Position numbers and translations under genes: made by a program. A stretch of 57,921 bases of DNA, counting the filler, from Sluysia triapertura (lineage: Eukaryota): assembly GCA_046118255.1 (NCBI GenBank). It is 5 parts of 5 records of this genome, joined end to end, with 100 filler letters (N's around TTAATTAATTAA, not from the genome) between each part and the next. Parts side by side here need not be neighbours in the genome. Positions count along the whole stretch, not along the records: positions 11,071 to 24,416 come from JBJNIA010045127.1; positions 24,517 to 35,976 come from JBJNIA010183013.1; 3 more parts are not named here. The stretch is one strand, 5' to 3'. Positions 12,130 to 49,189 of the stretch are shown here, one piece after another (the stretch's first letter is position 1; the number at the start of each line of letters is the position of its first letter). Under the pieces are notes generated by a model. The model was not told where the DNA came from. It saw only the letters and a program-made list of their open reading frames with translations, and did not search any database.

Positions 12130-14229
12130 TTTTAGTGCCGCCTTAAGACCAGGCGAAAACAATGTATTTTATTTGTAAACCTTAAGTTCGACTTAGGATC
12201 AGAAATTAACGAATAAGAACAAAAATAAAACAAAAATGAATTGTAAAACTTTAATAAAATACAAAAGCAAACATCAATGTTATATAAATCGTTCGTTGGC
12301 ATATACGCTTCAGGGCTACACCACCGGCACATCCACGGACGACTTTTGAGTCAATGAGCAGTTGATAGTGCTGGATATTGTGGTTGTATGTTATTATAAT
12401 ATTTAAATTTATTATCGAATTTACCAGATCATTTACAATGATCATTTTATTTGTAATTTTAAAAAACTTTATTTTTACACAGAAGTATGAATCTAGATTG
12501 AAGAATTTTAGAATGAAAATATCGAAACTGAACTTACAAAAGATTTTATTTGACATAAAAATTTTTAATTTTTTCTTTATCATCCGTCGTCCTTACTTCC
12601 CTTCCTAAAATAAAACTAACATTTAAGTTATTACTAAGATAAAAATAAATAAAATTTACATTTACAAAGTCATTAAGGTTGGCATTATTTGACTGAATAC
12701 GTGCGTTGACCGATTGCAATAAACTTAATAGTCGGGAACGATGGTCCACGTTGCCTTCCTGAAAATGTGGATCCTCCAATTGATCGATAGTGTGGGCACG
12801 TATACATCTGTTTGGATATCTCAAGCATGTACCGTTGAAATCACTTCTATAAGGGCATTTTGATAAACCACTACGCACATTTGAATTTTGCATACTTTTG
12901 ATAGTGTTATAATGTAGATACACTTGAATAGCAGAATTGTTCTCTGATTGCGCAATACATTCACCTGATTTATAGCAAAAACTGTAAGAAAGCTTCTCGT
13001 TATACACTTTACTCTTTGATATATCATAATATTGTGACATTGATTGGTAATGTTTTGTATTGATTATAGACTCAAATTCAGAAATATATTTGTCTAGTAG
13101 TGCTATAGCGCTCAAAAGAATTAGAGATTGACTCTGTGCACTTCGTAATGAACTATATTCATCATCACCAATTATGATAGATTTTTCATTCTTAGATTCA
13201 TCATCAATATTGAGCATGTAAGTTGAGTTCTTCCTCAGATTAAAGTCAAGTGTATTATTATTAACGGTTGTCCTATTTAAAAGAGTAGTTAAATTTTTAA
13301 GACGAACTCCTGATGTGTAATAAAAGACCAGAGCAGCACAAAGGCATCTTAATAACGAATAGGTAACTTTATCAATGTTATGATCAGTGATTGGCCACAT
13401 TTTCGATAAATGATTAACTGAGATTATTGAGAATATTGAATAATTTTGATCAGATTCCGGTAATAATTCCGGGAATTCTCGTAACAGTTCAGTACTGTTA
13501 ACACGACGTTTATTCTCATACAAACTTTCGCCAATTAAAATGCATTGAGTAGATGGTACATGTACCGTAAAATATCATATTCGACTTTGATCACAATAAT
13601 TACTAGTATATAACAACAATGAACCTAAATCACTAAAATTCTGTATATAACACATCCATTCAGAACGCGAATAACTTTGGTTTAATTTCATATGTTATTT
13701 TTTCATTTCCTTACAAGCATTGTTTTCTAACCACACATAAAGATATTTTCGAATATTTAAAAAAATCATTAGAACCGTTGAATTCTACTTCATATGATTT
13801 GGACTGAGATGTCGCAACTGAAGAACTTAAAACATATTGAATCCTTTCTAATGATGTTATTTCGCAAATATAAGCCTTCAAGTAGTAATTAATTAATGAA
13901 ATATGTTTATTGTATCGAAAGGTTCGCTACTACCTAAACTATTTATAAAATCATTTACATCCTTTTCAAATAGTAATTCCATGATTTTTGCAGGGTGATT
14001 CAAAAAATATTGAAAAAATCTGAATTAGAAGGATAATGTGTTAGATATCTTTCACCAAATTCGTTATAAATTTCGCAACCACTAAAAGACTTTTTGAGCG
14101 ATTCTGTGAGAATTTAAGGATGTAAAGAATCATAGCGACTGATCTATATATCCATTTCAAATAAATTAAATGATCCATTACAGTACTAATATGTACAAAA
14201 CGAAATAATGCTTTATTTTTAAAATTCAT
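12130..14229 (-). pseudogene. Copy A (best preserved) of an uncharacterised ORF family with an Unkempt-type CCCH zinc finger
   Basis: 325-aa open stretch 12546-13523 contains CPYRSDFNGTCLRYPNRCIRAH (12792-12857), preceded by YKSGEC. The same frame extends upstream through TGA/TAA stops and frameshifts to MNFKNK at 14229. GT-AG intron candidate 12659-12605 (55 nt). Confidence 0.65.
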
Positions 14230-14289
14230 TTTTTTGCTACACAAAAATCTTTTCTAATTTATTTACTAATTATTTTTTAGTTAACTAAT

Positions 14290-14820
14290 AAATCTGGACA
14301 AAATAGCAATTTTTGATTGGCTGTAGTATTATCAGAGTAACATTTTAATGAATATCAAGAATTTGATTAATTGTGTATTAATGTGTCGAAAACAAATTAC
14401 CCTGATAAAGCGACCACTATCAATGATGACAACAGAACATACATAGCAACTCATAGTGGCACCATTGATAGTGGCAATAAAATTAATAATTTGACAAAAA
14501 TTAAAGGTTTTATTATAAAAATTATCAAAATATAATGATAACAATAATAATAATAGTAACAGCAGGAATATTACCATTATTATTATTATTGTTATTAATG
14601 CATAAATTCTTTTAAAAGTTGAAAACATAATCTTTCTTCTAATTCCTTTAAATTTCTCAACATATTTAAAAGTCAAAGATGATGAAAATTAAGAATGATA
14701 TTAATAATAACAAGAACGACAATGTTATTGTTATTATTATAAAAATACATAAAGTCTTTAGATTCTTTAAAACATAATCTTTTCTTGTATTATTTTATTT
14801 ATTCTCAACATATTTAGGTT
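14290..14820 (-). repeat. Shared upstream cassette, with internal duplication of the AAAACATAATCTTT...TTCTCAACATATTTA segment
   Basis: Homologous to 3790-4170 and 30060-30450; duplicated segment at ~14600-14670 and ~14750-14820. Confidence 0.6.
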
Positions 14821-14939
14821 TATTTAGAGCAGTTGAAAATCTTTAAATGTCCAAGTGTTAAGTGCTACAATGTTAAAAAGTTAGGACTTAAGTACTTTGA
14901 AATGATACAAATATTTTACGTGAATTTAAAAATATACAT

Positions 14940-15425
14940 TGATGTTCTGGATGAAGGTAATGTTTAGATGTTAGAAGGTCGTGATTGAAAATGCATTGAA
15001 AAGAGTGTGGTTTATAGGATAAAAAGAAGATACATGTAGTCTATGTTTTGGTACATTCTAAAAGAAAATGATTTTGGTTATATTGACGTGGGATTATGTA
15101 AAAAAGGTTTTAATGAATTCTTTTGAAAATGTGTATTGTATATTTTGGAGCAGTATGTGGTTTAATAATTTTGTAAAAGAAAATTCTTAATAAAATTTGT
15201 TGAAATTAATAGGTTGGCCACCACACTGGATACCACCAATTTCTCCTTTAATGATCGACAGCTGAAATAAATGAATGTGGACTTCCACATTTGCTTACCA
15301 AGAATTAGAAAAATTAAAAACGTCCATTCTTTCCAGAAATTATTCTTGAAACAATATTGAATTAGGGCTTCAAGAACAAGCTTTAATTGAGTAGCATTAT
15401 ACTTTATTGTGGAAAATTTTAGCAA
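14940..15425 (-). mobile_element. Penelope-like element remnant (RT motif plus GIY-YIG C-terminus, internally deleted)
   Basis: LIQYCFKNNF...VSSVVANLL resembles PLE RT (GSP.S.VVANL). 14940-15060 is clearly homologous at nucleotide level to 30470-30590. No YVDD present. Confidence 0.6.
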
Positions 15426-16789
15426 ACGTACATAACTTAAGAGGATTTGAGTATCCAGTAGAATAGTTGAAGCACAGATGTAACATTTAAATGATATGTC
15501 GGAAAAACTAAGTAAAGCATATGTGACGAATTACGAAAAATGTTTCTCTACAAAATTTCTACTTTTTCATATTGTTTCTTAATTTTAGTGTTGGACAGAA
15601 ATTCCTTTATGAGGTTTGTTGAAACATTTACTCAAGTTGTACAGTTTCAAATTCAAATAAATATTTAAAATGTCATTGTGAGACTTAGAATTATAGCATA
15701 AATAACATAAATCGTGAATGTTCAAATAGGAAAATATTTTAAAATTAATTCAACTAATATTGCAAAAGTTAAATGTCTTTCATGAGAGGATATTTTAAAT
15801 TTTTTTGGTTTTGAAAAATGATCGCAACATGTATTTTCTTTTTAAATTCATGGTTATAATTTAATTAGTTATCGCGTCGAAGTAATATCAATTTTCTTTT
15901 ATGGTACTTTTATTAATTGGCACTTTTTAAGGTCTCCTACTTGACTGCTTATAGCAATTTTTGATTTTAATTAATCTTTCAACATCATTAATGAATTTTT
16001 ATTAAATAATAACAGTAATAATAGTAATAAAATAATAATTAAAATAGTAGTAATAAAAATAGTAATAATAAAAATAAAAATAAATGAATCAACTGTATAT
16101 TGTAATATTTAAACTTTATATAATACTACTTAATAATTTTTAAAATAATTTAAGTTTAAAAGAAGTATAATTTAAATTTTTTATTAAAATTAATAAGATC
16201 AATTTGTATTGGATTTTCCTAACTTGTATGTTCTTCAAGATGTGCTAGCTAGTGACAAAAGACGTGTGAGTGCTAGAACATTGCATGACTAATTGGAGGA
16301 AACAATTAAAACTTTTATTTTATTACGATAAAAATTTATAAAATTTAGTAAAGAGTTGAGTCTACCTTTAACCGAATCTCAGAAATAAGTAAATACATAA
16401 ATGAAATTGATTCATTCTGCGTTTTAGAAAAGTATAAGCATATGCTTCATAAATAAAATTGCATAAATATTGTATATTTTAATTTCAATTTGTAATAAGT
16501 ACATTTAAGTAGGAATAAAAATGAATAAATTATTATGATCTTAAAAATTTATGCTGATTGTTGATATTCATTAAATGAATTTCGAAATAGTTGCATATAC
16601 TCAATGTACATCAGTATAGAAATTCATCATTTAAAATTATAAAAAAAACAATAACTCCATAAAAATTTCATTGGGATGGAAAGTTAATTAAAATTAGCAA
16701 TTAAAAGGAACAGCAAAGCAACCTTAATAATCAGTATAACACATTTTAACTAGAAATTACAAGATTTTGAGGTGTACGGTATTATAAAA

Positions 16790-16960
16790 ATTGAGTTTGT
16801 GTTTTATGTATATTGTTTGATGATCTGATATTTTGTGTGATATTATGTTGAAGTTTGTTTAAGATTTTATTTATAAGGAATATATTATTTTGTGTTGGTG
16901 TTTACTTGTCTTTACATGTACACTGTTTCGATTTTGAGTTGACTACAATAATAAAGTATA
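16790..16960 (-). mobile_element. LINE apurinic-endonuclease C-terminal fragment
   Basis: NFNIISHKISDHQTIYIK contains the terminal SDH motif of APE domains. Confidence 0.3.
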
Positions 16961-17107
16961 AAATGATTTTTTATATGAATAATTTAATAATCATGTTTCA
17001 AAACTTTAAATTATTCCTATAATCCGTAATTATTGATAATATTTAATAATAATAACTATTTATTACTTATAAAATATTGTCAATAATAATAGTATAAAAA
17101 TTATAAC

Positions 17108-17225
17108 CGGTGAATTTTGCTGTCGTGATACCAAGCTTGTAAAGAGTAAAGAAGTTTCCCATCACAAGTAGAGTAAGAATAATGTTTCCCACGGGGAAAA
17201 TAATTGATCCAATATAATCCATTAG
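17108..17225 (-). CDS. MFSD4: MFS transporter (MFSD4-like), C-terminal TM exon
   Basis: ttcag|LMDYIGSIIFPVGNIILTLLVMGNFFTLYKLGITTAKFT; phase 0 matches the preceding exon. The 3' end is either the donor at 17107 or the stop at 17067. Confidence 0.65.
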
Positions 17226-17539
17226 CTGAATTTTAAGAAAAAATGAAATTGAAATCTCTATGACAACTTGCATAATGTTCTGTTTTAATTATTTTTTTAA
17301 AAAGATAAAACTTATGAAAAGATTATAAGTTCTACATTTCACAACAATTTAAAGCTTTTCTAAGAAATCTGAAACTTCAAAAATTAAAACATTTTTTATA
17401 AAATTGCTGTTTACATAAAAATGTAAATTTCGAAAATAAATAAAATCTAATTAAAAAAACAAATTAATTATTATTTTTATTTTTAATGTTATTTTATTTT
17501 ATTTTGTTTAAATTTAATTTAATGTTACCAAGAATAGTA

Positions 17540-17770
17540 AGAGGATAATGAGAAAATATGTGAGTCATGCTAATGTCCTTAGGAAAAGTGATATTGTTTC
17601 TCTGAGTGTAGAATATATTCATTTTCCGCAGACCAAAAAGTGTGCTAATGTGCTTTTTAGTAAAGAGTTTGCCAAATTGTGTATGAGATAAATAATACGA
17701 TATTGTATCTAATGTTGCTAAAAATAGAAATAGAATGTTCCAGAAAAAATTTCAAGTTGTTTTTGAAGTG
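17540..17770 (-). mobile_element. PLE RT-like fragment in an MFSD4 intron
   Basis: TLDTISYYL..LFTKKHISTLF..NIF..PKDISM resembles the PLE RT region preceding G..MGSP. Confidence 0.25.
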
Positions 17771-18883
17771 CTAAAATTAGTAAAATTTCACTTTTTGTCT
17801 TTAGTCTAATCTTTAGCTTACATGGAACTTCAGATGTGATGACAAAGGTCATGTTACATATAGGTGACTCCGTTGACACAACTTAGCGGTCCAGTCCGAT
17901 CTCACAGTAAAATATATGGACAACATTATCAAAAAGTAAAAACAATGAAAACTAAAATTTTTAAATGGTATTAAATTTGTGCAGTCTTCGATGTGTTATT
18001 TTCAAAATATTTTTTATAATACCATTGATTTTTCAATTGTAACATTTTATCAAATAAATACTGAAGATAACGATATTAAAAAAGATTTTATTACTTAAAA
18101 TTTAAAATTATAACTTAAATTATAACTTAATTAAATTGCGTTTTTGAAACATTTTTATAGAAAAAATAAAATAAAATTATTTTTTTAATTTGAATTTTAA
18201 ATATATTTAATAAAAGCGATTAAAAATATTATTTAACAAAAACGTGTTCATTCTTTAACTAAATTTATTCGAATAATTGATATTCTTAATATAAAAATAA
18301 TTAAATAATATTAATAATATATTCTATGTAATATGAATTTAAAAAATATATATACATAAATTATGTTTTCAAGAGGTGAATAAAATAAATACTTGGTTCT
18401 TACACTGTATTATTAAATTGGCTTCGAGAACTGAATAATTAGATAAGAATTTTTTTCATTTTTATTTTAAAATATTTTTATAATATTAAAACATAAATAG
18501 TTGTGTTTTAGAAGTAATCAATTATTTGCAATGTCATATCGAATCAGTTTAAACTTGGTTATCATTTCAAATCATTTCAAAAATGGTTTCATCAAACAAG
18601 TAAATATTGAATTTTATAGTTACCGCTTAACAATGAAGTAAAATACATAAACTACTTCAAATTTATTTCTAAAAAATGTTGCCATAAGTAATTAGCAATT
18701 CTGTAAAAAATTAATAAATAAATCTTATTAAAAAATTTCTTTCTTTAATAATTATTGCATTTAATAAAATTTAATAATATATTTGATATTATTTAATAAT
18801 TTATACCATTTCTTAAATATTATACTAGATTTTATTTTACATTTTAAATGCAAACTATAAAAGTAAGGATCAATATAAATTAC

Positions 18884-18954
18884 CGTGCCAAATATAAGTT
18901 GAAGAAGAGCTTCTCCTAATGATGCACTGAATATAATAAACGTTGTTCTCCATT
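18884..18954 (-). CDS. MFSD4: MFS transporter (MFSD4-like) internal exon
   Basis: 71-nt exon, ttacag|..WRTTFIIFSASLGEALLQLIFGT|gtaatt; resembles MFSD4A TTVLVTGAGVGEMVLQMLVGS (recalled). Phase 1 matches the upstream exon. Confidence 0.75.
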
Positions 18955-19988
18955 CTGTAAAAAATAAACAACAAAACATAAAAGCAATTAATCTTCTTAT
19001 TTTGATTTATTAATTCTTGTTAACAAAATTTATTTGTTGTTGGTTTATATTCTATAAATATTGATATTTGATTGTATTATATTTTCGAAATATTATTTTT
19101 ACACATAATTATATCAATAAAACATTTGGTAAATATATGTTAATATATAAATCAATTAAGAAGTTAGGACGTTTATTGAAGTATTTTTTATTTAAGCATT
19201 TTGTATTTTATATTAGACAATAATTTCATTTCTAAAATAAGAAATATATAACTTACAAAAAAAGGGTATTTGTTAAATACTTTTGATTTCTTCGAAAGCA
19301 ATTTGACATTCTTGAAAAATATTTAATGAAAAATTTGTCATTGTCTAAACTTAAATTTAAGAAAGAATTTATGTAGCACAGAAAAGTGTGAAAATGTAAT
19401 TACTCTTGAATCAAATAATAAGAATAATTTTTTAAGTTAACAAGGTATCTCAAATAGAACAACGTCTTAAAAAAGTAAAGCGGCTATAAGTAAAAGCAAA
19501 AGTAAGATTTAAAATCATGGTGTTAATCCATTTATGTTTATGATAAAGAAGTCTTGAAACAAAAATGTATAAGGAATACGCAATAATAATTACAATTAGC
19601 AATAAATTAGTAATATTCAAAAAAATAATAATTTATTATAGAAAGTCATGATATTCGGGAAAGTATAAAAGCACATAAAAAAGCACATAAAACATAATGA
19701 GTGAAAACAGAAGTAATTTCATTATTTTTATAAGAAAATATTAAAGATGATAAAAAGGTAAATTATTCGTATATAAAATACTAATAAAATATAAATATAA
19801 ATGCATTAAATGTATGAATTAACCAATTTTCTATCTGTACTATCTAATTTCGTTTATTTAAAATGCCTAGTAATTAATTGAGTATATATGACTGTTGCCT
19901 ATGACACTATCAATTATTTCAAAAAGAAAGAATAATGGATGATTCAATATTGCTATTATTTAAATGAAAGTTAATAATTTTATTTATA

Positions 19989-20025
<37 letters not shown>

Positions 20026-21426
20026 GTTGCTGTTGTTATAAAATGACATTTTTATTAAATGAATTTTTCTTTAATTCATTTTCATCAACATCTAAAATTC
20101 AATGAATATTTGAAAATTTGATGATTTTTTATGAAAAAATTCATTTTTGTCTTATTTTTATTTTTTTATAAGCTTGCAACAAAATGAAAAATAAGAAAAA
20201 AGTATTATTTATAGAGACTAATGATACATTAAAGGATTAAAGTATACAGAGTTTACTGAAATAATATATTTATGCTGGTTTTTACAAAATCTGATTTTAT
20301 ATTATTTCTTTAAAACCAAATATTTGCAAAATTTACTTGAATTATTAAAAATCATATTAAAAGAATTGCAATAATAATAATAATAATTATTATTACTATT
20401 ATTATTATAATTATAATTATAAAAGACGTATTGTATTATCTCTAGGAACTAAACCTAATCATTTCCTTTCATTCTTACTTTTAATTTTCTCTCATCAATA
20501 AATGAAAACTGATACTGATTTCAATTTTCTATACTATTTAATGATTTTAAAGTAAACAATAATTTTTATTTATAAAATATCTTTTATACAGTTATGTACT
20601 TTGTGTTGTGTATAAAGTATTTTAATATCGTTTTAATGTTTTTGAACAAAATAATATAGTTCAAATATATCGTATATATTAAAATTACTTATAAAAATGA
20701 TTTTACAAATTATTTTATTAAAATTTAAATTTTTTATAATTTGGAAACACTTTAGAAATGTAATTTTTCTTTAGCATATTATGTGGCTTTTTCATGATAG
20801 ATAAGACATTTTTTCTCTAAGTCATATCAATAAAATAGATATATTAAGTGAGATTTTTGTGATTTTCAGAAATATATTCTTAAAAGGCGAACATATTTGG
20901 AATTTAAATCTCATAAAATAGACTTATGCTTAGAAATTTCGCACACTAGTATATTCTAAAATCATTAATTAGTTTCGTTATGCATTTGTATTATATTTAA
21001 TAAAATACATGCTTTTTATGAGGAAAAGTGATGCAAATTATTTTTGCATTCTTTAAACTAATATATAATTTTTATTTACTAACATTCAAAAAATTAATAT
21101 AAATAAAATAAACTCTACACATTAGCTAAATATATTTCTTAAAGTTGACTAAAGTTAATCATTGGATGACACACATAAATAATACTATGTGGGTGTAGTT
21201 TGTTATTTTCAATTATTTTGATTTATACCTATAATTTCTATAATGTATGTAACAACAATACTGTTTTATTTATTTTTCTAATAAAGTAAATACGACAGTT
21301 ATGTATCCTCTTTAATTAAATATTTTTATTTACTTAAATATAGCTAATATTTAGTTGCGATTTATGTTACAAAATAAAATAATATAAAAATAAATTAATA
21401 TTAAAACAATAGTAAATTAGTATTAC

Positions 21427-21574
21427 TTGTTAAATTAATAAATTCTTCTGCCAAAGAAATTACACCAGGTGTCATGTTACTCAAGCTTAATCCGATGATA
21501 CAAGTGGCTACATAAAGTACTTTACCTTGATTTTGACCACAAGCCATCAACAAAACACCAAAGAATAAAAAAAT
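21427..21574 (-). CDS. MFSD4: MFS transporter (MFSD4-like) internal exon
   Basis: 148-nt exon, tttag|IFLFFGVLLMACGQNQGKVLYVATCIIGLSLSNMTPGVISLAEEFINLT|gtaata; resembles MFSD4A LFVGTASLGLFLSSTFPSMLAYTE (recalled). Confidence 0.75.
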
Positions 21575-22535
21575 CTAAACATTAATGATAGTAATAATTA
21601 TAATATTATTTGCTATTTTTATTAAGAAAGAAAATAAAAATATATTTTATTATTTTGAATTTTTATCCAATTTTTGTGATAATTTTTAATTATATTTACG
21701 TTTTAAGTATTAATTATTTGTATCATAATTTTGTTTTCGAAAGTTATTTTGAAAATAATATCATTCATCACACATTGCCGAAAATATCCAACAATCGATG
21801 GATACATAATAAACATGTTAGATTAAGTGCGACGTGCACAAGGAAAAACAATAATTTTGTAAAATTATTATTAACACATTCTATACGGCTATACAGCTGA
21901 AAAGTGGGCGATTTTTTTATCTTATGATAATTTATTTATTAATTTATTAAAAGTCATAAATATTTATTATTTATTGAACATTTATTACTATGTACATAAC
22001 GTGTTGATTCGTTTCTCGTAAAGAATGTGTTAATATTAGAATTTATATTTTCGTTTTAAATTTTGTTTCGTTTGAAAATTAATATTATCAGGACCATAAA
22101 CATCAGAATAATAATAATATTAAAATAACATTATAACCATAATAATTTTAATCATAGAAATAATAATGCCAAATTGTAAATAATTTAATAAACTAATTTT
22201 CTATAATAATAATAATAATAATTTTAATAATCTAATAAAAACAATAATAATAAAAACAGGATAATAATAATAGCATATAATAATAGCGATTTTAATGATA
22301 AATAATAAAAACAATAAAATAATAAAAATAATTAAATAAAAAATAATTAAATAATAAAAATTTTTCTTCGTACGTCTGATCAAGTGAGTTAAAAATAGAA
22401 AGTACACACATATTCAGATAGTGAATAATGAGCCAAGGAAGAGGATAAAACGTAAAAAAAATAAAATATTATGATATTGATTAATTGACTTAATCGTCAA
22501 GACTAATGTTTTGTTGGATTAGTAAAAATTTGGTT

Positions 22536-24250
22536 ATGAATTTGAAGTCATTTTTTCGACTCTTGTCCTTTCTCATTGTTTGCATATTTATCTTTAACTA
22601 TTTATCATGCAATATTATGGTTTAATAAAAAGGAACGTGATAGTAATCATGTAAATCCATTACAAAGATATTCAGTAATGATTTTAAATGTTACGAATTA
22701 TTTTACTACGAAGTTATTCGATATACAAAGTAAATTAACTTTTCTAGAATAACATAATGAAATATGTAATGATAAAAATCCATTTGATTACCATTTTCCA
22801 TTATTTCCACATGAAATTAAAGTTGATAATGATGATCGCATATCAAACGCGTTATGTACCATATCAAAAGTCAAATAAAACAATTTATGAAGTGTTTTAA
22901 CATATATATAGAAGATGAAATGAAAAAGTGCTATATTTAAAATGTCGTTCGGCAAATAATATTTCTTCGGCTAATTTAGTATGGAGCAATTTCAATTCCG
23001 TATCTAATCTCGCGAAACTAACATTGAACAAACAGATTTATGTACTTTAATCTAAAACACGATATTACATCAGTATAAACGATAAACAATTAAATAACAA
23101 GAAAGTATAATGATTCAATTTATAAGGTGATCCTTTATATTGCATTTAACATATCTAGAATTGACAACAAGCAGAAAACGGCACAAGCAGATGTGCTACA
23201 TGAGTTGTTTGACGTGAGTTGTGTTCAGTAAATATGTCAACAGTACTGTAATGACGGTAATGTCGTAACTACATTTGTAACGGAATTTATATTGAATTTA
23301 GAAATTTAACAAAAGAAAATGTTAAAATCTTGTTACAACTTTGACGTACACTATCATGATTTGGTGAGCCAAGACTCAAAAGGACCTTATCTCAATTTCG
23401 AAATAGCTTAATCATAACACAAACAACTTTCATGCACAACTACTTTTTCTGATATTTCCGATATTTGCATGACTTATAGAAGTTTTGATACATTGTCATT
23501 AATAAATCTTAACTAACTAAAGGTTCGTTATTTGCTTTAAGACTAGAAAGAAAATTTAAAATTTCATTTAGCACTCATATCTCTTAAATCAGAAACGATT
23601 AGTACTTCGAATTTCAATAAAGAATATTTATATTATTAAATAAAGTATCACGTTAGTTTAAAGTGAATTCAGTTACGTTTGAATATTGTTAAAGAAGTAA
23701 AAGTTCTACTATTAATAATTTGAAAGGTAATAAGAGTTATTATTTCTAAGTATTGTGAGTTTAAATTAAGAAAAGATAAGCAGTTTATATTCCTTATTTT
23801 AGTGATTTTTATAAATTCCTAAAATTATCAAAAATGAAACCTTTCTGTATTTATTCCAGTATAGAATCCAATTACGAAGATTCAACACGTGATCATTAAC
23901 AACCATGCGACAACAACAAAAGAAATTTTATTAAATCCGACCTTTAGATGTAAAACAGCTTAGAGATGGTAGCGAAAATATTAAACAAGAACCCCATGCT
24001 GAAGTAATAAAATTGAAACTGAAAATATAAAAACAGATGGAAAAATTAAACGAAAACGAAAAAATTAAACAATCAAATATAACAGTTCCTAGGGATGAAA
24101 ATATAAAGTCAATTAATCAAAGTAATCAATGGACCTATACGACTTTAAAAACCGCATCTTCATACTTACGAGGTAATAAATTAGGCAACAGTTTTTATGA
24201 ATCCAAAAAGTCATTTACAAAATATCCATTGCTGGACCTGATCATCAGCA
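22536..24250 (+). pseudogene. Decayed copy E of the same ORF family (N-terminal/central part; finger not reached before the LINE fragment and contig end)
   Basis: Collinear matches to copy A: MNLKSFFRL/MNFKNKALFRF, EMKKCYI*N/EMKK..CYIQN, QYCND/NYCDQ, FSDIS/FSIIS, KVRYLL/KVTYSLL, DENIKSI..YTTLKTASS/DESKNEKSI..YSSLRSAQS. Confidence 0.6.
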
Positions 24251-24325
24251 CAAACATTATTCTAATGGGTCACTTCCATTTTCGATATCAATGTCTCATT
24301 TTGTCTCCTAATCTCTACTTATTTC

Positions 24326-24416
24326 ATAAAATGGTTTGAAAATAAATACTTGAAAATCAATGAAGAAAAGTCAGAATTTATAATCTTCAGTAATAAAAAT
24401 AGCGACAATGCCAAAA
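24326..24416 (+). mobile_element. L2/CR1-type RT fragment
   Basis: IKWFENKYLKINEEKSEFIIFSNK matches the W...N.LK.N..K.E RT motif. Confidence 0.65.
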
Positions 24417-24516
24417 NNNNNNNNNNNNNNNNNNNNNNNNNNNNNNNNNNNNNNNNNNNNTTAATTAATTAANNNNNNNNNNNNNNNNNNNNNNNNNNNN
24501 NNNNNNNNNNNNNNNN
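24417..24516. other. Artificial contig linker
   Basis: N44-TTAATTAATTAA-N44. Confidence 0.98.
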
Positions 24517-25818
24517 CACTTTATATAGTAAAATCCAACGGCTGGCCCTCGCTGGTAAGTCCAGTACGTTGGTGAACTCACAATAAGTTTTTAAATAAAC
24601 TTTCTTTTCTTTTATTCTCTCTCACTATCTTTATAAGACCTCACTTTAAATTGATTATTTCTACATTTTCACTTTAATTGTTATTTGTTATTAAATTTTG
24701 AATTTATATTAACTATATATTATCTCATTTTAAATTGATACTAAAGCATTATAATTTTAATAAACTTTAACCAATATTTTGTTAAAAATGAATATGTTAA
24801 ATATTATATTTTATTAAAAATGAGTTTATAAATTATTTTATTAAGAGTGAGTTTAATTAAAATGAAGAATGAGCATCATGTATGTATTACATTTTACATT
24901 ACAAAATGATTAAAAATAAATACTCATGTATAAACAAACTATATATCATGAAACTATCAAAATTTACTTTAATTCATACCAAGAATCTTTTCACGATTAT
25001 ATTTTAAAATTACATATTAAAGTTCATTTCATAATTCACAATGAATATTTTACGCAACATAAATGAGACTTCCATTTTTAATAAAATTCATTAGGTTTAA
25101 CTTCTTTTCCTTAGAAACATCAATGGACTATTCTATTGCATTGAGCCTAATTTCTAAGTGTGCTATATCATTACCCAAATTCATACCATTAGAAAAATTG
25201 TACCAAGAATCAACACTAGATAAATAATAAAAATATCAAAACTACGACAATATTTTAATTATTTTAAAAAATGGTGTGACATCGGATAATCACGCTTACA
25301 ATTAATTAGTATTCGTATAAATAACTGAAACAAGCTTAGTTTTATCACAATAAAAGTACAAGGAAAAATTGACAATTAAATAATAATAATTTATTAATTT
25401 TGAAACTACTCAGAGAAAATAAAGTTCTTTGAGATTTAATTTATATTTAATTACGATAAAGTATCAACAAAAGTAAAGTTAATCCTTCGATTCAATTAAT
25501 AATCTGTTTCATTCAATATCTGCAATTAATAAAGTCATCATAGTGCAGAAAGGAAGAATTAGTTATAAAATATCCGAAATTTTTGACTTAAATCCTTAGT
25601 ATTGAGACAAATGGCAAAATTATTTAAGTTAATTGCTATAAGTTCTTACTTGATTAAATCAAGTCATAAAATCAGAATATATTAATTATTCGAATAATAT
25701 AAAATTAATAAAAATATTATTGGAATTAATACTAAATTTCTTTAACATTCACTTAAATTTTATTATAGAATATTAAATTGACATCACTTATAGTTTTCAA
25801 GTGCTACATTAAACGAAC

Positions 25819-26383
25819 CCAGTAGTTTCAATATCTTGAGACGTGAATGATAATCTCTTTGTTGACCAAAGTATACCATTTTTGTCCTTACTCTTTTGAC
25901 CTGTCCAATAACGATAACGTCCTTCTGACAATGATAAATCTTTTAGTTTATTCAACACTTTCTTTGTTTCTTCAGATTTTGGTAATACTCGTACCATAGC
26001 ATATGCAGCCAAGGCGATTCGGTAAATATTATTATTATTATCTTTGTATAATGCATCTTTAATACATTTTATTCCAAGACCAAAATCCACATATTTTATC
26101 ATCTGTTTTCGAATTCCACTCAATGCAATCATTATATATGATGTAAGCATACCTTTGTCAATACTGCGATCTCTATTTTGCCCAACTCCTCCAGCTAAAG
26201 AACTGCTCAATAATTTTCCGTTTTCCACAAAGCAACCACTTTTTTTGTCTTGCATCTTAGTCACATAATTTATAGATTTGTTCAAATCAAGTTCATTGAT
26301 AAAGTTTTTATCAATCAAATATGCTTCCCAAAATGATTTCATTACAAATCCAGTAAGCCATGTGCTTCCACGTGTATATTTAT
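25819..26383 (-). CDS. TEP: Thioester-containing protein (A2M/TEP family), TED-domain exon
   Basis: GSTWLTGFVMKSF, QDKKSGCFVENGKLLSSSLAGG, LTSYIMIAL, IALAAYA, RYW, DIETTG. NAGNAG acceptor (26386/26383); donor near 25818. Confidence 0.9.
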
Positions 26384-26947
26384 CTACTAAATATTAAATA
26401 TATAAACATTAATTGATTATATCATTCATATTAATAAAATATTGATACATTAAAACGTTTTCATCTTGTCTTAAAAGCTTTATCCAATGCAGAGGTTTGT
26501 CAGTGCATAATAGTTTGATAATTTAATAATACACCATATCTTTAGCTTAAGTACATGTAAGTTTACTAAATAAATTGTTAGTTGGCAAATTTTCTAGGTG
26601 AGATGGAATGTTTTGGTTGCGGACAAAGCCACAGTAGAAATATATATATATTAATGTTCACACTTTTTTATTTGCAAAAATATACGAAAAAGTGTATACC
26701 GAAAAATTTATTAAAAGTGATCAAAGAAAAGTAGACAATTGCTCTGATTAATACTCTACAATTTGGAAAAACATTATCGATGTTAACGTGATATAAAACT
26801 AGTACATACGAAATTAATTTGGAAACTGTATAATTAGATTTAGTTTATTTATCATCAAACATTTTAAAAATTTAAGAATAATTTAACATAAAAAGTCATA
26901 ATAATAGTTTGAAGCTAGATTAAAATATGATATAGACCCAAATATAC

Positions 26948-27542
26948 TTGGTCCGAAAGCAGAATATGATCCATCCGGATGCTGATACATCATTTGATTC
27001 AGAATTCCACTCTTTATATACATTCGTGCTTTTTCTACTAATTTTTTATTATTGTTGTCTGCTCCAGTATTCTTTAGGAATTGTAATACATAAATACTTG
27101 GAACCAACTTCGCCATATTTTGTTCTCCACAACCACTTGGTAATCGAATTAATCGTCCAATATCATTCAATGAAGAACCAAGTACATTACCCACCATTAC
27201 AAGATATGAACGCAATGATTTTGGAACAGCTTCTGAAGGAATTTCATGGATAGATTTCAATTCAATAACGCCTTTTTTTACGCACAACAAATCAGAAAAT
27301 GTAACTTCATGAGGAACTCCTGGAGCTTCTACTCGTAATTGACGTCGAATAGTATCTCTTTGAAACACTACTGTTTTCTTTTTCTTTTCTGTTTTGTCCA
27401 TACCACAAAAACTTGAGTACCGAGACTCAACAGAGACATTAATATTCAGATTTTCACCTATAATTTTCGGTTCTACTTTAAAATACATGGTCTTGATGCC
27501 ATTGGAGCACATACACATTGTAAAAGATTTGGGACCAGATAT
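26948..27542 (-). CDS. TEP: Thioester-containing protein (A2M/TEP family), exon with thioester motif
   Basis: DTIRRQLRVEAPG, LIRLPSGCGEQNM (GCGEQ at 27120-27134), YQHPDGSYSAFG. Acceptor aatag at 27543, donor at 26947, phase 1 joins the next exon. Confidence 0.93.
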
Positions 27543-29057
27543 CTATTTTAAAATATATCAAAAATAATTTCAATAAAAATATTCCATAATGAAATTGTAA
27601 TTTAAATATTCCTCTATTTCTTAAAAATGTAGAAATTTATTTAAAATAGATTTTATGTTCCTCTTCAAAGCTCGAAATAATATAAACTTTTATCAATTGG
27701 TACGGTAACTCGATTCTTCTCCTACGATTATATTACACAACATACAAAATCTCACTCCAAACACTTATTAAAACACACTCCACATATACTATCACATAGT
27801 AGTATATGATTCCTCCATTACCTACAAAATGTTTATTACATTTCGTGAGATACATTTAAGAGTTTAACTAATAAAAATAAAAGAAATTAAAAATTTTTTC
27901 ACGAGTAATTAAAGTATTAAACTGACACATATCGTCGTTGTTTTGTCATCATCATTGATACTGTTAAGTATAATGCTCATTTTAATTTTAAAATCATTTT
28001 AAGTTTATTTTAATCATTATAAAATCACGTCAATAATTTAATCATTTTGAAAAACTTATTTTAAAATTACGTCATTAAAAATCATAGAAATTATCATTGA
28101 GATCATAATGCTTTTATGTTAAATTAAAGTGAGATAACAGAGATAATATAAATTCAAAATTTAGTAAAAATAACAATTTTAAATTGAAATTGTATAAATA
28201 ATCATTTTAAAGTGCAATTGTATAAAGATAATGTGAAATCAAAATTTACAAACATTTAACCTTACTATTACAATCAATAAAATTATTTTAAAATAATAAT
28301 TAATAAAAATAGTATGAAATCAAGAGCATAAAATCTAATCAAAATTATCTTAAAAACTGTGATAAGTAGAATAAGATCATATTAAATTAGGATTAAATAA
28401 AATCACTATGTAATCAAAATTTAATAACATTATATTCAATCAAAATAAATTTAAATTAAAGAATAGATAAATTACATAATTACATAATAAATAACTATTG
28501 TTATATATAATACGTAAATTCTTAATAAAGGTAAGAACATATAACTATTAATAGATGTGAGTTACTAGTTGTATCTAATACATAACAAAAATATTAGTTA
28601 CATCAACTTATAATTATTATTAAATTGTTTAGATAAAAGAATAAATTAATATATAATAATTGTTATATGTTAAATTAATGAAGAATAATTATTACATCGT
28701 TTTATAAAATTATCACAATAACATAAAGGAGAAAGAATCATATAAATTAAATAACTATATAAATTAAATAAATTATATCTTATCGAGAAACGGAACTACT
28801 TGTGTTGTGGATTTTTAATGATTTGAATGTTTTTTAAGTTAAGATAAGATGCAGAATTTAATTTATATTTTTCATTATCTGTTTAAATTATACTATTTAA
28901 CTTTATTAAAACTTTTTGTTTCAAAATTTTTAAACCAAAATAGGTAATTATACTTTCTGTACTCAAAAAGGACAAAAAAACAAAATTTTATATATTAGAA
29001 ATTTTAATTTAAATTCCTGACTCCTACGAATAACTATCTTTTTATCTGTTTCACCTA

Positions 29058-30006
29058 CTAGCAAAAAAAAGTATTGACAACACTAAGAATGCGAACATAA
29101 AAATTGTTTACCTTATGGTTATTGATCATTGAACTCTTGTCAGTCGAACTGATCGAAGTAATTCCAATACTCTTAAGGAATCCTGCAATTCTATGTATAT
29201 GATGATTATTATGATTTGCTTCATCTTCTTTATTAAACTTTAATTCGTAATTAGAATGTGCGTAGAGGCAGCATATTCCGTGCATTAGACATATCTCATT
29301 GTTGTCGGTAGAGAATGGACAAAGACCAGTCGCATTAGCATTTTTATAATCGTTGAATTCGTAATGCTTATCTTTATCATCGTTAAGTTTGAAATCATTA
29401 GTTTTATAATCATTAAGTAAGTAAAGATTATTAATATCGTCGTTAAATTCGTAAACATTAATTTTGCAATCATTAAGTTCGTAAATATTATTACTATCGT
29501 CGATAAACTCGTAAACGTTAATTATATAATCATTAAGTACGTAAATATTAATACTTTTGTCGTTAAACTCGTAAACATTAATTTTACAATCACTCAGTTC
29601 GTGAATATTATTATTTGTCATTAAATTCGTAAACCTTAATTTTATAATCATTAAATTCGTAAGCATTATTTTTATTGTTAAAATCATAAACATCAGTTCT
29701 ATAATCATTAAGTTCATAGTAGTTATCTTTATAATTGTGAATTTGGTAAGTATTGTCTTTATTATTGTTAACTTCATGATCATCACCTTTAATCTTGTTA
29801 GCTTGAATAACATCATCTTTGTCATTGTTAACTTTGCCATCATCATCTTTGCCATTCTTAGCTTGATGATCTTCATCTTTAGCATTGTTAACTTCTTTAT
29901 CATCGTCTTCACCATTGTTAGCTTGAATGTGATCATCTTTATCATTGTTAATTTCGTGATCATCGTGTTTACAATCGTTAGATTTAACAGAAAATATGAT
30001 TAACAA
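29058..30006 (-). pseudogene. Copy B of the Unkempt-type CCCH ORF family; N-terminal part made of 10-aa tandem repeats
   Basis: LCPFSTDNNEICLMHGICCLYAHSNYEL (C-x9-C-x6-C-x3-H, 29256-29321), then HHIHRIAGFLKSI. GT-AG intron candidate 29111-29058 (54 nt). One frameshift near 29612 links the repeat ORF 29611-30006 to the finger frame. Confidence 0.65.
29340..29990. repeat. 30-bp minisatellite (~21 units, partly 60-bp higher order)
   Basis: Units such as ATCATTGTTAACTTTGCCATCATCATCTTT grade into ATCATTAAGTTCGTAAATATTATTACTATC-like units; encodes NNDKDDHIQA grading into YEFNDYKINV-type repeats on the minus strand. Confidence 0.9.
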
Positions 30007-30059
30007 AAATCTATTTTTTAAATAACAATACGAAATTTTTTAATTATGACAAATTTTTG

Positions 30060-30450
30060 TGATTAAGCCACTACTGATTGGTCATCTAACCAGAAGTATC
30101 GTAGTGATAAAAACAGTGATACTTGCTCTGGTTGGATGGCCAATATGAGCACATGATTATCATCATTAATAATTACTAAAGCCAAAATAAATATGATGAC
30201 AACCATCATCAACAATGTCATTGAATTATAAATGTAAACCAAAATGCCATTGTCGATGATGGCAGCTACTCAGTTAATTATTCACATCATCAATAATGAA
30301 TAATAATGAAAATAATAATAATAACAATAATAATAACAATATAATGTTATTATTATTATTATAAAAATCACAAATTCTTTATTTCTTAAAGCTTTATACA
30401 TGATCTGTCTTTTGAATCTTTAAAATATTCTCAACATATTTAAATCGACT
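30060..30450 (-). repeat. Shared upstream cassette (CCAAT boxes, AAT tract, TTCTCAACATATTTA)
   Basis: Homologous in motif order to 14290-14820 and 3790-4170; directly upstream of copy B. Confidence 0.6.
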
Positions 30451-30469
30451 AAAAATTAAATGTCTTTGA

Positions 30470-31090
30470 TGATGCGTGAAGGTTAGATGTTAGTAGATCG
30501 TGGGTTAAAATTATGTTGAAAGATAATGGTTTCGAGAATGAAAAGAAGATAAGTTATAGTATAGGTTTTGGTATGTATGTAAGAATGATTAGAGAATGTT
30601 CAAAACATGATTTATTTTCTTGATATGTTTATGTAGTGATATCGTTATGTGTTGTAGAGAATTAAATGATACAGATCATGAATTTAGAATGTTTGGATTG
30701 CTTTGAAGATGTTTGTTAGTTAATCTCGAATGTGATTGTCATTGAATTGTTGAGAATTGGAGAATGAAATATTTTAGATGAATTTTTTAAATGTAAATTA
30801 TGCGATTGTGCGTTTAAGTTGACTTAAGCGGATGAATTGTTTTAGTAGATATAGAGGAGATAAATATGGGAGTGTTAAAATGTTTAAGAGTATGGTTTTA
30901 CGTACAATGTGTTGATTTAGTGTAATGTTGTTTTATGTTGATTTTTGAATGTAATTTGTAGATTTTGAGGATAAATGTTATATTAGCGAAAGTTTATGTA
31001 AAAGGAATATTTTTGATGAGTGTTTTGGGAAATATGTAATAAAATTTTTTAATAAAATTTATTAAGAAAATAGGTTGGCCACCACAACTT
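30470..31090 (-). mobile_element. Penelope-like element remnant
   Basis: VVANLF (31070-31085), NIYP, TLPYLSPL, SLHKHIKKINH..LHTYQN and LLFILETI..QHN correspond to the PLE RT/thumb/linker/GIY-YIG C-terminal motifs in order; YVDD region missing. Confidence 0.65.
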
Positions 31091-32384
31091 GATTATTTAT
31101 TGGAATCAATCGTCAATTATTCGTCATAAATTACTAATTAAATGATTAACAATTATTCATTAAACTTGATCATTAATTGATTAAACCAGTTAACAATTAT
31201 CAATTAAATTTAATTATCATAAACAACGAACTTCTAGAATCATTTGGTAAATTTACTTGAAGTCATTTATTGGAACAATTATTGGAAATATCGAATTAAG
31301 TCTTATATTAAAGGATTGGAACAAACTGATAGTTATCTGATAAGAATTTTCTTTTGGTCTCGACAATTAATATAAAATTATAATTATATTTGACTCATAA
31401 ATTTATATAATTAGTTTAATTTTATTGTACCATTATTGAAGTTGTTTATCATTTTGAAAATAAAATCGTTGCAGAATAGAAATTTTTAATTCGGTAAAAT
31501 AAAATAAAGTAGGATTCAGATAGAGTACGTTTATACGAAATTAACTAAGAGATATTCAGAACATAACAAGAAATAAACAAGATTTAAAAGAATAATTTAG
31601 TAGAGAAGCACTTCCATCCCAAATAACTGGAACGAGCATTCGAATTAACACTTTCAGATAAGTTAAAGCTAATATATTAGTATAGAGATAGAATAAACTA
31701 GTAAAGGAAGTTACATTAAGAATAGTAGTCTAGCCTCTTGAATTTTGACTTACAAAATTTTAAAGTTTAAATAATATAAAGCATATATAATCATTCATAA
31801 AACAAAATTATTGTCTGACACACAGAGTTTATTTATGCACATTCAAACACTTATAACCTACAGAACTTTATTTTTACAATACCATTGATTTTTATGAAAT
31901 TATTTATGTTTCTTAGTAAAAACTTTGATTTCCGGACTTGCGATGATAATCATTCCGGTTTACTTAATTATATAGGAAAAACTAACGTTATCTAATATTT
32001 GGTTTACTTTTAACCCTTTATCGTCACTTTACGTTACTATAGTAGAGATCTCATCTACATAAATAAACTTATGAACTCATACAGTCATGTTTATTTATTT
32101 ATTCTAAATGACTTATTTTGACCAAAAAATTAGTTTTGATCTGGCTACCTCTTAATTTTACCTTAGTATTTTTATTAATTTTATTATATTATTAATATGT
32201 CATTAATGATAATAATAATATTTATTATTATTAATATTATCATTTAATATTGAATATTTTATTATTTTACATTACTGTTATTATTATTTTTATTATAAAT
32301 ATTATCCTAACAAACTTGCAAAAAAATTAATTTTGAAATATAAAAAGAAGAATTTTGAAAAATAAATGGTTCCGAAGGATTAAC

Positions 32385-33430
32385 AAGATGAATGAATCGT
32401 ATAATGGATGATTTAGATTGTTTCAAAATTGTACCAGTAATTGAATGCGAAGCGAATTTAAAGTTATCATTCAGTCACTATGAATCAGTAAGAATTCTAA
32501 GCGCAGACGTTAGTGTGGGAGACGACAGAGATACCAGTGATGTATTTTTAATGACTTAACAAAAGAAAGATTCGAATCTGAAAATGTGTGTAAAAATTTT
32601 GCCGAATTTATTAAATACTAATCAAGAAAGTGAATTGGACAAAGTTACGCCTTTGAAAAGTATTAAAGTTATGTCTAAATGCGTACTGATCGGAATGCTT
32701 GGTTCCCTAAAATTACTATCAGGTGGCGATGGGATCGAGAGACTTTACCAACAATTTACCATTCAAAAATTTTCATGTAAAAAATAATATTAATATGAAA
32801 TTTGATATAATGCAGGAACAGATTGATTTTGCAAAAAATGGTGTAGATTACACTAGAATCGAATCCTTATAAGTTAAGGTCAAACACACATTGTGAATCA
32901 TGTAATAATTGTGAAGACCGGTTATGAAATTTATAGCGACACCATCATGATAGTTTAAAATAAATAGTAAAGATAAACAAATAGTTTTAAACCACAATTT
33001 TAAAATTAAATCACAAAGATTGTTGATTGAACGATCGAAAGCTAAAATAAGCAGTCTCACAATATTTAATAAAGAAATTTATTCAAAATACGCGAAATTA
33101 CGTGAATCTGTGGTAGAACGACTTCGAGATATACTGAAAAACAAATAGTTTAAAGAAGAATAGTGATATATAGATGGTTTATGGGCAATTTTTAATGAAG
33201 CGTGGACATTGAATTATGAAGAATTAAAAACAAATCGCTAGCGACTTCAATCAATTAGTGTTGGTTGGCGAATCTCTGTGAAATTCATTAGTGATAAACT
33301 TCGAGTTGATAACGACAAACCATTCACAGGAGCTTCTCATCACAGCATGAAAGGTTTATTAGTTACTCTGATAAAAGCTCAACCGTCCCGAAGAATTCCT
33401 TACATAAAAGCTCGATGATAACCAGACTTA
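32385..33430 (+). mobile_element. Decayed gag-like (LTR retrotransposon) remnant
   Basis: G*FRLFQNCTSN* (WF..F..C..NW gag-like) and a broken zinc knuckle EI*YN...DFAKN near 32795-32840. Confidence 0.35.
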
Positions 33431-34310
33431 TAACCAATAGTACAATGTTGAATTAATTTGTTTATATTATAAACTTGATAAAAATTATAAATTATTTTAC
33501 AAAAAAAAGAATATTTAATAACAATAATTTTATTTGTTTATATAATGTTCATGTAGCAATATAAATGCTATAGAAACTTCGAAATAATTTCCCATTATTT
33601 TTATGAATCTGAAAATGGATATTTCTTTATCATTACCTTAGAATATTATAATTCTGAATATCAAAAGTTCGGTTAGTTTTTTATTTATTTTACTGTCAGT
33701 TTAAAACGCCATTAAATATTCATCAAAATGATTTATAATTTATTTAAAGGCTTTTGAATGAAAATATCATTGGATCATTAGAACCTTACTGTTTTAATAA
33801 TTAACTAAACTCGTAAGCAAACATATCGCACCTTGTTACTCCAATTTAAAACGAGAAAACTTTTGTGTCAACCTCATTTTAAAAAGAAGATAAAATAATT
33901 AAAAATATATCATTAATTGAAAAATCCTCCGGAACAATAACGATTTATTAATAACAAAGAAGACGTTAAGTGACCTCGAAATTTTATTTATGAAAATTCC
34001 AAAATCCTATGGATAAGCCCTTAAATGCAAAAGTTTTAGATCATTTAAAGTTACTAAAATATTTTATGATAAAAACCCATCAACTCTATATTGAACTGTA
34101 ACGTAAAGAATCTGTGCATATTTTACAGATTTACTATAAATAACGTTAATAAATCCATTACTTTTTTTGGTTTTAGAATTTAAGGCTTTACTCGAGTAAC
34201 ATTTACTCGTACTATAATTTCTCTTTTTACAATAACTTTAAAGTTAAATAATTTATCTACGAGTACATCAATTAACGTGCTTAGACGTTTATATCTTTCA
34301 ATATTGTAAA

Positions 34311-43871: not shown

Positions 43872-44410
43872 ATGTACGTAGGACTAACTATTCGAAATAT
43901 AGGATTCTACATGAATTCAAAAATAAATATTGAAGAAAATATTAATTGTATAGTTAAAATGCCTGAATATCAATTGAAGGAAATATCAAATATTAGAAAG
44001 ATTTTACTAAGGAAACTAATTGTTCAGTCATTGATCATACAGATTATAATTAATCGTATATTGTATTTAATATTATATATAAAAATCGAAAATTACAATT
44101 ATTATTAATGGATCAATAAGAATAACGTTTCAAGTTAAAGATGACTGCATGCTGTAGCTTATCTTAAAGAATTAGACTGGTATTGAATAAAAACAAAAGT
44201 AGAATTCGAAATTATGATGGTAATCCATGAAAGTCCTGAATATCTCTTGGAAATAATAAAAATTCGGAAACCAATAACAATTTGTGATGTGATAGGTTGT
44301 ATGTCTTGTATGTTTGAAAAATCTCAACCAGTAACCATAAATGTTGAATTACTGAAAGATTATGAAATATCAAAAAAGATAGAGTTATTTCTATTTTATA
44401 AATATACTTA
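43872..44410 (+). mobile_element. L2-clade LINE 3' fragment
   Basis: TIRNIGFYMN..INCIVK..ISNIRK..LIVQSLI and YLKELDW..KVEFEI..SPEYL; similar to 54470-54915. Confidence 0.75.
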
Positions 44411-45939: not shown

Positions 45940-46681
45940 TTTTTACGTGAAACTTCGGCATCGCATACCACAAAAAACATGAGTAGTGTATTTGGTTCTA
46001 GTGTTACTACACAGTAGAGAGTATCAAATTGGATTGCAAAATTTCGTATAAGTAACTATGATTTCACAAATGAGCCATAAATGTCAATAATAAAACTAAA
46101 AGTCATTGTTGAGTATGGCCTATCTCAGAGTGTTGGAAACAAGCAATATTAAACAGGTAAAGTGAAAATTTTGGATAAGTGAACTGAATGAAATGCAGAA
46201 ACAAAAGCGTTTGGAAGCTTGTTGTTGCTTTCTCGTCACAAATTTGATCCATTTTTGAATCGAATTGTCACTACTAATGTGAAAAGGAACAAATAGGACA
46301 ATCAAAAGCGTTCAGCACAGTGGTTAGAAAAAGACGAATCACTAGAACACACTCCAAAGCGCACTATTCATCAGAAACATTTGATGGTCTAGCGCGATTG
46401 TGATCAATTATGATTTCATGAAAAATGATTCATCAATCGCATCAGAAATATATTGCAACCATCTGGATGAAATGATGCAAAAATCTATAGAAAAACAGCT
46501 TAGATTGGTAAACATATCGATGCATATCTTATTGCATGATAATTCTAAACCACACAGTAACAAGCAATTGTGGCACAACTATAGGAATCTTAACCGACAA
46601 CCGCTTCTTCCGCAATTTGGACAACGTTTAATAGGAAATCAAATTAATTCCGACAATGATACAAAATACCTTAACTCTTAA
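45940..46681 (+). mobile_element. Decayed mariner (DD34D-type) transposase
   Basis: VFG..RVSNWIAKFR..DFTNEP, KRLEAC, PFLNRIVT, DNQKRSAQWL..PKRTIHQKHLMV, YCNHLDEM, ILLHDNSKPH. Confidence 0.9.
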
Positions 46682-49129: not shown

Positions 49130-49189
49130 TGGACTGACTGAGATTTGAACCCGAGTAATTCGATTCTCTGACCACTGAGATATCAGCCC
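49130..49189 (-). pseudogene. tRNA-like element lacking the anticodon arm
   Basis: GGGCTGA/TCAGTCC acceptor stem plus A, D arm TCTC-AGTGGTCA-GAGA, T loop GGTTCAAATC; only 10 nt between the D and T arms. Confidence 0.65.

Follow-up and report, generated by a model that had tools for sequence, protein, structure and literature searches.

We analysed 57,921 nucleotides of the Sluysia triapertura genome (assembly GCA_046118255.1; hereafter the window), comprising five contigs of ~11-13 kb each with N spacers between them, and identified a dispersed family of open reading frames (ORFs) that carry a single CCCH zinc finger of the Unkempt type. Each of the three copies, denoted A, B and C, occupies a separate contig, the spacers confirming a preliminary description of this DNA in which the copies were unlinked. 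The family is real and apparently undescribed; it has fewer copies than the 4-6 originally proposed, of which three are supported, and its carrier is unproven. With a probability of roughly 40%, we favour the reading that A, B and C are old, decayed members of a non-autonomous mobile family, containing a captured Unkempt-type finger and moved by Penelope-like machinery. From the cargo-carrying family first envisaged, the finger ORFs with a predicted intron, the repeat upstream of A and B and the lack of a relative in the databases searched are retained, while a shared ORF body and the assignment of the upstream block to a Penelope-like element (PLE) are not.

An Unkempt-type finger in three ORF copies

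The spacing C-x9-C-x6-C-x3-H occurs only twice in the window, in A and B and on the minus strand in both, compared with a mean of 0.04 per shuffled window (n=150). The related pattern C-P-[YF]-x7-C-x6-C is found three times, in A, B and C, compared with 0 matches in 150 shuffled windows. These are the two intact fingers and the one broken finger previously reported. Behind A and B, and nowhere else in the window, lies the motif H-x2-R-x3-[LF]-L-x-S, again as reported.

12792-12857, minus strand: CCCH finger of copy A, C-x9-C-x6-C-x3-H (pattern; Pfam zf-CCCH_UNK, E 0.021, 15.2 bits)
29256-29321, minus strand: CCCH finger of copy B, the most Unkempt-like of the three (Pfam zf-CCCH_UNK, E 0.00027, 21.2 bits; 5ELH_A, E 0.0078)
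2937-2990, minus strand: finger of copy C, with a frameshift after the third Cys and before the His (C-P-[YF]-x7-C-x6-C pattern)
12711-12743, minus strand: H-x2-R-x3-[LF]-L-x-S motif of copy A (pattern search)
29169-29201, minus strand: H-x2-R-x3-[LF]-L-x-S motif of copy B (pattern search)

Searched against the Protein Data Bank, B retrieved a single match, mouse Unkempt (5ELH_A, residues 85-128), in an alignment that runs upstream of the cysteines; we take the matched region to be the third finger of Unkempt. A profile of the three copies also ranked 5ELH_A first (E 0.029), followed by an enterotoxin chain (E 0.042) taken as a chance match, and A alone did not retrieve 5ELH_A. Both the spacing of the finger and its flanks (HY..YK..TG.C, TD, G..C..AH..L) are like those of Unkempt (PF25427; last finger of 5ELH_A). 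Unlike Unkempt, which has six fingers and a RING domain, A, B and C have one finger each, with neither tandem fingers nor a RING domain seen in any of them, and unrelated N-terminal bodies. In addition, none reaches the curated Pfam cut-off for zf-CCCH_UNK (31.1 bits), C having no match at all. The earlier assignment to the Unkempt type is supported.

In the fingers of A and B, the same residue is encoded at 9 of the 22 codons, with an identical codon at 0 of those 9; DNA identity is 29/66 (44%) and synonymous sites are saturated. Because residues have been kept via different codons at this level of DNA identity, the divergence of the two fingers, as read from their codons, is old, with selection acting on the protein.

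Searching the window with the profile of three fingers revealed no fourth copy. Two further copies that had been proposed were rejected: D, a possible finger at 779-835, has the spacing C-x7-C-x9-H with a stop and no Pfam match, and E (22536-24250), described as collinear with A, does not align with it. In frameshift-tolerant alignment against A, z-scores with the finger region included were -0.6 for D and 0.9 for E, and those of the bodies were -1.0 and -0.1. Another copy suggested by eye at 32300-34000 was likewise discarded (z -0.8 versus A). Three copies in 58 kb correspond to 11-152 per Mb (Poisson 95%), assuming typical contigs; the high copy number of the family is an extrapolation from these three.

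Each copy has a short predicted GT-AG intron behind the finger (55 nt in A, 54 nt in B and 83 nt in C); the donors, the same in A and C, agree with the earlier account. All three are in phase 0 and are followed by a stop 0-10 codons on, the frame of C being read past its frameshift. Of 3000 random positions, 3.6% have a comparable feature 60-160 nt behind them, under a definition made after seeing the copies. Two visible gaps in host genes are longer than the predicted introns, at ~230 and ~580 nt.

12605-12659, minus strand: predicted 55-nt phase-0 GT-AG intron of copy A, the frame ending three codons on (sequence pattern)
29058-29111, minus strand: predicted 54-nt phase-0 intron of copy B (57 nt via the next AG), with a stop 0 or 6 codons on (sequence pattern)
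2780-2862, minus strand: predicted 83-nt GT-AG intron of copy C, its 11-nt donor identical to that of A (sequence pattern)
12549-13574, minus strand: stop-free frame of copy A, 342 codons, of which 305 precede the predicted donor at 12659 (no open run in 2000 shuffles exceeded 122 codons)
13575-14000, minus strand: probable decayed 5' extension of ORF A, with two stops and two frame changes, or else unrecognised introns (by eye)
29342-29981, minus strand: body of copy B, a 30/60-nt tandem repeat encoding an N/D/K-rich peptide, with one frame change near 29612 (repeat analysis)

The ORF bodies that precede the finger have nothing demonstrable in common. Frameshift-tolerant alignment of 13 pairs gave no ORF body shared among A, B and C (all z <=2.3, 12 shuffles each; A-C 0.6). 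When the finger region was included, z-scores against A rose to 5.2 for B and 2.7 for C, the score of B merely equalling the best of 8 whole-window shuffles. The codon-position composition of the putative extension of ORF A is partly coding-like. In B, the last tandem unit of the body continues into the finger and corresponds to HY..YK, the stretch matched to Unkempt; the B body is therefore likely to have arisen by amplification next to the finger.

Relatives of the family were sought widely. In a 5.8-billion-protein search, 0 of 794 candidates were confirmed for A and, among longer proteins, 0 of 479 for the alignment of the three fingers. A HMMER search of 1.84 billion representatives returned 2 matches, both tandem-repeat proteins with summed weak stretches, which were rejected. 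The Atlas held nothing usable for A and generic CCCH clusters (<=0.90) for the finger region of B. Viral contigs yielded 42 and 2 pattern matches, none of them confirmed, PHROGs gave 0/3 matches, and no transposon with an Unkempt-type finger is described in the literature searched. The AlphaFold prediction for A alone (mean predicted local distance difference test score 34.9) is meaningless.

A common module upstream of copies A and B

Upstream of A and B lies a common module of ~1 kb, the aligned pieces of which are 72-83% identical (blastn). It consists of a G-poor block followed by a cassette; homology of the cassette is supported by z-scores of 16 and 23 (100 local shuffles), and that of the block beyond it by a z-score of 13.8. 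The module starts with an identical 18-mer (18/18 nt), present in A and B only (2 matches versus 0.02 expected). The DNA 5' of this start does not align between the copies (z -1.2), and neither does the DNA 3' of the cassette (z -0.7). In both copies strand skew sets in at the common start, forming a sharp compositional edge; the two 600-nt bins with the strongest skew in the window both fall in the block of B, and the block of A is ~340 nt shorter. Both modules are on the same strand as the finger and <2 kb upstream of it, an arrangement expected at ~0.3% under independent placement (a rough estimate: 3 x 2 kb of 116 kb, squared).

14930-15225, minus strand: G-poor block of copy A (G 6%, C 22%), the 18-nt motif common to A and B marking its start (composition, alignment)
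30450-31086, minus strand: G-poor block of copy B (G 4%, C 23%), a possible degenerate Penelope-like reverse transcriptase (RT) remnant that the profile does not confirm (composition, profile)
14596-14819, minus strand: cassette head of copy A, in two tandem copies (14819-14741 and 14673-14596; nhmmer, repeat analysis)
30364-30447, minus strand: cassette head of copy B (nhmmer)
14533-14597, no strand: AAT/ATT palindromic tract of copy A (inverted-repeat listing)
30289-30382, no strand: AAT/ATT palindromic tract of copy B (inverted-repeat listing)
14413-14475, minus strand: 18-bp hairpin of copy A, covarying with B (folding, pair count)
30202-30263, minus strand: 18-bp hairpin of copy B (folding, pair count)
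30076-30145, no strand: second long hairpin in B, containing CCAAT (folding z -3.0 on the minus and -4.7 on the plus strand)
14314-14320, minus strand: CCAATCA near the end of the A/B homology, a putative promoter box (alignment)
3780-4180, minus strand: AAT/ATT tract plus a CCAAT upstream of C, about as far from the finger as in A and B but with no demonstrated homology to the A/B cassette (alignment, nhmmer, folding)

The 18-bp hairpin folds better than shuffled sequence in both copies (z -3.2 and -3.0). In A and B, 36 of 36 cells are paired; among the 18 pairs, 4 differ between the copies at both positions, as compensatory changes, and 2 at a single position. Long GC-containing stems number three in the entire window, all of them inside the A/B modules. 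The CCAAT formerly read as a promoter box forms, in B, one arm of an inverted repeat (30145-30076) and is not clearly a promoter. A hammerhead reading of the hairpin was rejected, with neither an Rfam match nor a core motif at the hairpin, and a reading as a selenocysteine insertion sequence (SECIS), judged by eye only, was dropped.

The non-coding module is better conserved than the fingers that it precedes (72-83% versus 44% DNA identity). Because the module is far better conserved than the synonymous sites of the finger, the bodies are unrelated and the modules lie just upstream of fingers, ordinary paralogous genes fit the pattern less well than does a non-autonomous element of modular build.

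Candidate carriers of the family

On the favoured reading, the module of A and B would be the degenerate 3' end of a PLE. At the start of the block lies SSVVANL, a match to RT motif B (p 0.020 for B and 0.025 for A). By eye, motif C, the thumb and an H-x5-H...LE tail also have weak counterparts in the block of B, in the right order and at roughly the expected spacing, the thumb-like stretch at 30776 having a z-score of 1.4. For comparison, 101 PLE loci were fetched with a pattern that we take to represent RT motif B, and 46 of them were used to build a 382-position profile, which covers Penelope/Poseidon-type loci only. Three PLE controls mutated by 40% scored 38-212 versus nulls near 33 and stood well clear of the null in almost every run; these controls came from the training set, so the power is overstated. 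We chose a Penelope-type carrier because of the motif at the block start and the precedent of Adineta vaga, in which an intron-containing host gene was moved in trans by pseudo-long terminal repeats (pLTRs) with palindromes of 18 to 38 bp, and in which asparagine-rich inserts occur (PMC3846280). As in those units, the cargo here has an intron (a predicted one), the repeat contains palindromes, there is an N-rich coding expansion, with the B body resembling the asparagine-rich inserts, and the unit includes no RT. Unlike the situation here, the Adineta vaga cargo is framed by pLTRs, has a target duplication and occurs once (PMC3846280); in the window neither a downstream repeat nor a duplication was found, the cargo is a family whose copies have diverged, and the repeat has no proven origin in a PLE.

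Several results weigh against Penelope-like machinery. The whole profile reached only z 2.3 (B) and 1.5 (A) on the block, from VVANL only and under chance peaks elsewhere in the window. Among the sub-profiles (8 tests), the thumb gave p 0.085 in B and 0.78 in A, the GIY core (0.88, 0.36) and the tail in B (0.48) were negative, and the tail gave p 0.025 in A, where the value falls on VVANL and not on the tail. The PLE remnant with a GIY-YIG tail that had been recognised upstream of A and B is reduced to the VVANL match, and GIY-YIG had no pattern match in the window and no Pfam match in the three minus-strand frames of each block. Codon models with G-to-A, G-to-T or C-to-T bias brought no gain (all z <=1.4), and G-to-A hypermutation was rejected as the cause of the skew, since it did not improve the profile score. 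With values of about -0.6 to -0.7, the G-C skew of the block is beyond anything among 57 PLE loci, which span -0.28 to +0.21, and the length of the block in B (~630 nt) is about 60% of the ~1000 nt expected from motif B to the stop (330-372 aa in 8/8 long PLE ORFs). The start falls on an identical base in A and B, which would not be the outcome of independent 5' truncation. No second module that could act as a pLTR partner was found downstream on any of the three contigs, the only local repetition being a 147-nt duplication of the head in A, and none of the 101 PLE loci (0/101) contains an Unkempt-like finger. Rfam detected no hammerhead to E 1, and a scan for the core motif had one match, inside ORF A; hammerheads are missing in Naiad/Chlamys PLEs according to the available part of PMC8557442. 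The hairpin covariation comes from only two sequences, is reached by 39 of 500 shuffles and would be mimicked by arm-to-arm conversion. Finally, the statement that one cassette precedes all three copies is confirmed for A and B and not for C: the tract upstream of C aligns with the cassette of B at z 5.2, no better than three unrelated AAT tracts (z 4.8-9.4), is absent among the nhmmer matches to the head and tail of the cassette, and does not surpass shuffled sequence in folding. Our leading hypothesis is still PLE cargo, though it is not a demonstrated one.

The same captured ORF family could have travelled on a DNA-level carrier, either Helitron/Helentron-like, another DNA transposon or a TG-starting long terminal repeat (LTR), the G-poor block being its non-coding terminus and VVANL a chance match. 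This explanation, which we regard as unlikely, accounts for the fixed start that the two copies have in common, for the abrupt change of composition there and for the negative PLE profile; it also fits variable cargo behind a conserved end, and DNA copying retains introns without a special mechanism. The microsatellite tract and stem-loops recall the anatomy of DINE-1/HINE non-autonomous Helentrons, which the accessible text of PMC4067079 presents as non-coding units able to carry gene fragments. Unlike these, the module is followed by a long ORF, has stems of 18 bp that exceed the 5-10 bp HINE palindromes given in that text, and shows no terminal or sub-terminal inverted repeat paired with its start among the longest pairs (best 25 of 325 and best 25 of 358). 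Moreover, the window contains no Rep/helicase or LTR partner, and the 3' ends are undefined. That the copies are single-finger CCCH genes of a host family specific to this lineage, some of them having become pseudogenes, with a shared block derived from an unrelated repeat or segmental duplication, seems to us distinctly improbable. A finger under purifying selection, 305 open codons in A and predicted introns in 3/3 copies would be expected of such genes; no transposase, RT or termini have been shown, and C lacks a demonstrable module. However, paralogues normally keep coding sequence better than upstream DNA, the reverse of what is seen here, the bodies of the copies do not align, B and C contain frameshifts, and 2/2 modules sit directly upstream of a finger.

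It is very improbable that the copies are pieces of one large element with multiple ORFs, whether Terminon-like or a large DNA virus that has integrated, with the G-poor block as the preceding gene and the hairpin as a 3' processing signal. Terminons bear many accessory ORFs and, as in Athena, extra ORFs are tied to PLEs; unlike the ORF described here, the extras named in the available parts of these sources are exonuclease, esterase, Rep, GIY-YIG, coiled-coil and membrane ORFs, with no CCCH ORF among them (PMC6431247, PMC5408684). No hammerhead was found in our sequence. The third Atlas match of the B finger region is a Nucleocytoviricota cluster (0.86), which is a lead only; against this reading, there were no relatives in viral contigs or PHROGs, and further shared ORFs around the copies were not found.

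Returning to Penelope-driven cargo, we infer capture, RNA binding, promoter activity, splicing and mobility in the following scheme. An ancestor would have captured a segment of a host Unkempt-family gene with one finger and an intron. The finger would have been kept under selection, most simply to bind the RNA of the element itself or its hairpins; Unkempt binds RNA, as stated in the accessible portion of PMC4358403. The body upstream of the finger would have turned over freely, in B via tandem amplification, and the module may be a younger or more constrained cis unit, combining a promoter with recognition hairpins, that was joined to different old ORF lineages. Mobilisation would have occurred in trans, because no RT or transposase ORF stands beside any copy, and a degenerate PLE 3' end would enable Penelope enzymes to copy the ORF that follows, intron included. 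The available text of PMC8557442 describes PLEs with PHD and SAP domains and calls the significance of intron retention in PLEs unknown.

A more ambitious proposal, which we hold to be rather doubtful, is an undescribed and very abundant modular element (tens per Mb) in which a G-poor multi-hairpin module is combined with an intron-containing ORF rapidly re-modelled around a captured Unkempt finger, kept under selection through its binding of the element's own RNA; if Penelope-driven, this would be a lineage of PLEs in which an RNA-binding gene of the host has been domesticated, and our searches returned no description of one. The capture of intron-containing host genes by PLEs and by rolling-circle elements has already been described. 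New, as far as the literature searched extends, would be a captured RNA-binding finger that is selected across dispersed copies while the remaining ORF is replaced. If true, this would provide a testable case of an element retaining a host RNA-binding module for its own cycle, and the covarying hairpin would be a candidate cis signal, the signals that move intron-containing PLE cargo being little understood. If the copies are instead a host family, they would represent a lineage-specific CCCH expansion of modest interest.

Other features of the window

The GC content is mostly 18-32% across the window, with a single 4-kb stretch at 36-37%. Head-to-head with the upstream region of copy C is a C-rich ORF of 248 codons (4424-5167, plus strand), with no credible match in Pfam or PHROGs; it has the top PLE-profile score in the window, probably a low-complexity effect. 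Downstream of A, a patch of higher GC (12130-12360) encodes a C-x2-C peptide on the minus strand and includes a short stretch that we presume to resemble hAT termini. No partner end was found for this stretch, and a pair of hAT-like inverted termini at 12133 and 15229 was rejected, there being no match between them by eye.

On the contig of copy B, two exons of an alpha-2-macroglobulin/thioester protein with a GCGEQ motif were found (25812-27548, minus strand), the best relative among the matches listed being Hydra vulgaris murinoglobulin, at 37% and 124 bits, with others at 71-103 bits. This gives a weak indication that the host is a divergent animal, possibly a cnidarian. Two inverted copies of a 140-nt repeat, 80% identical, lie on either side of these exons (24620-24761 and 28096-28236).

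Mobile-element remnants elsewhere include a decayed non-LTR retrotransposon (36600-41200, plus strand), presumably of the NeSL/R2 group, with an RVT_1 piece (39069-39704, E 4.5e-6) and, by eye, Ulp1-protease-like and endonuclease-like stretches. Two copies of one 3' tail, which we take to be CR1/L2-like, are 65% identical (44053-44405 and 54413-54818, plus strand), and a mariner-type transposase fragment occurs at 46385-46678 (plus strand; Transposase_1, E 3.8e-5). The remaining features are a Helicase_C_2 exon, presumably DDX11/CHL1-like (48276-48782, plus strand; E 3.4e-34), P4-type ATPase-like exons recognised by eye (56084-57145 and 54858-55422, minus strand) and a tRNA-like sequence (49130-49189, minus strand; Rfam RF00005, 34.2 bits).

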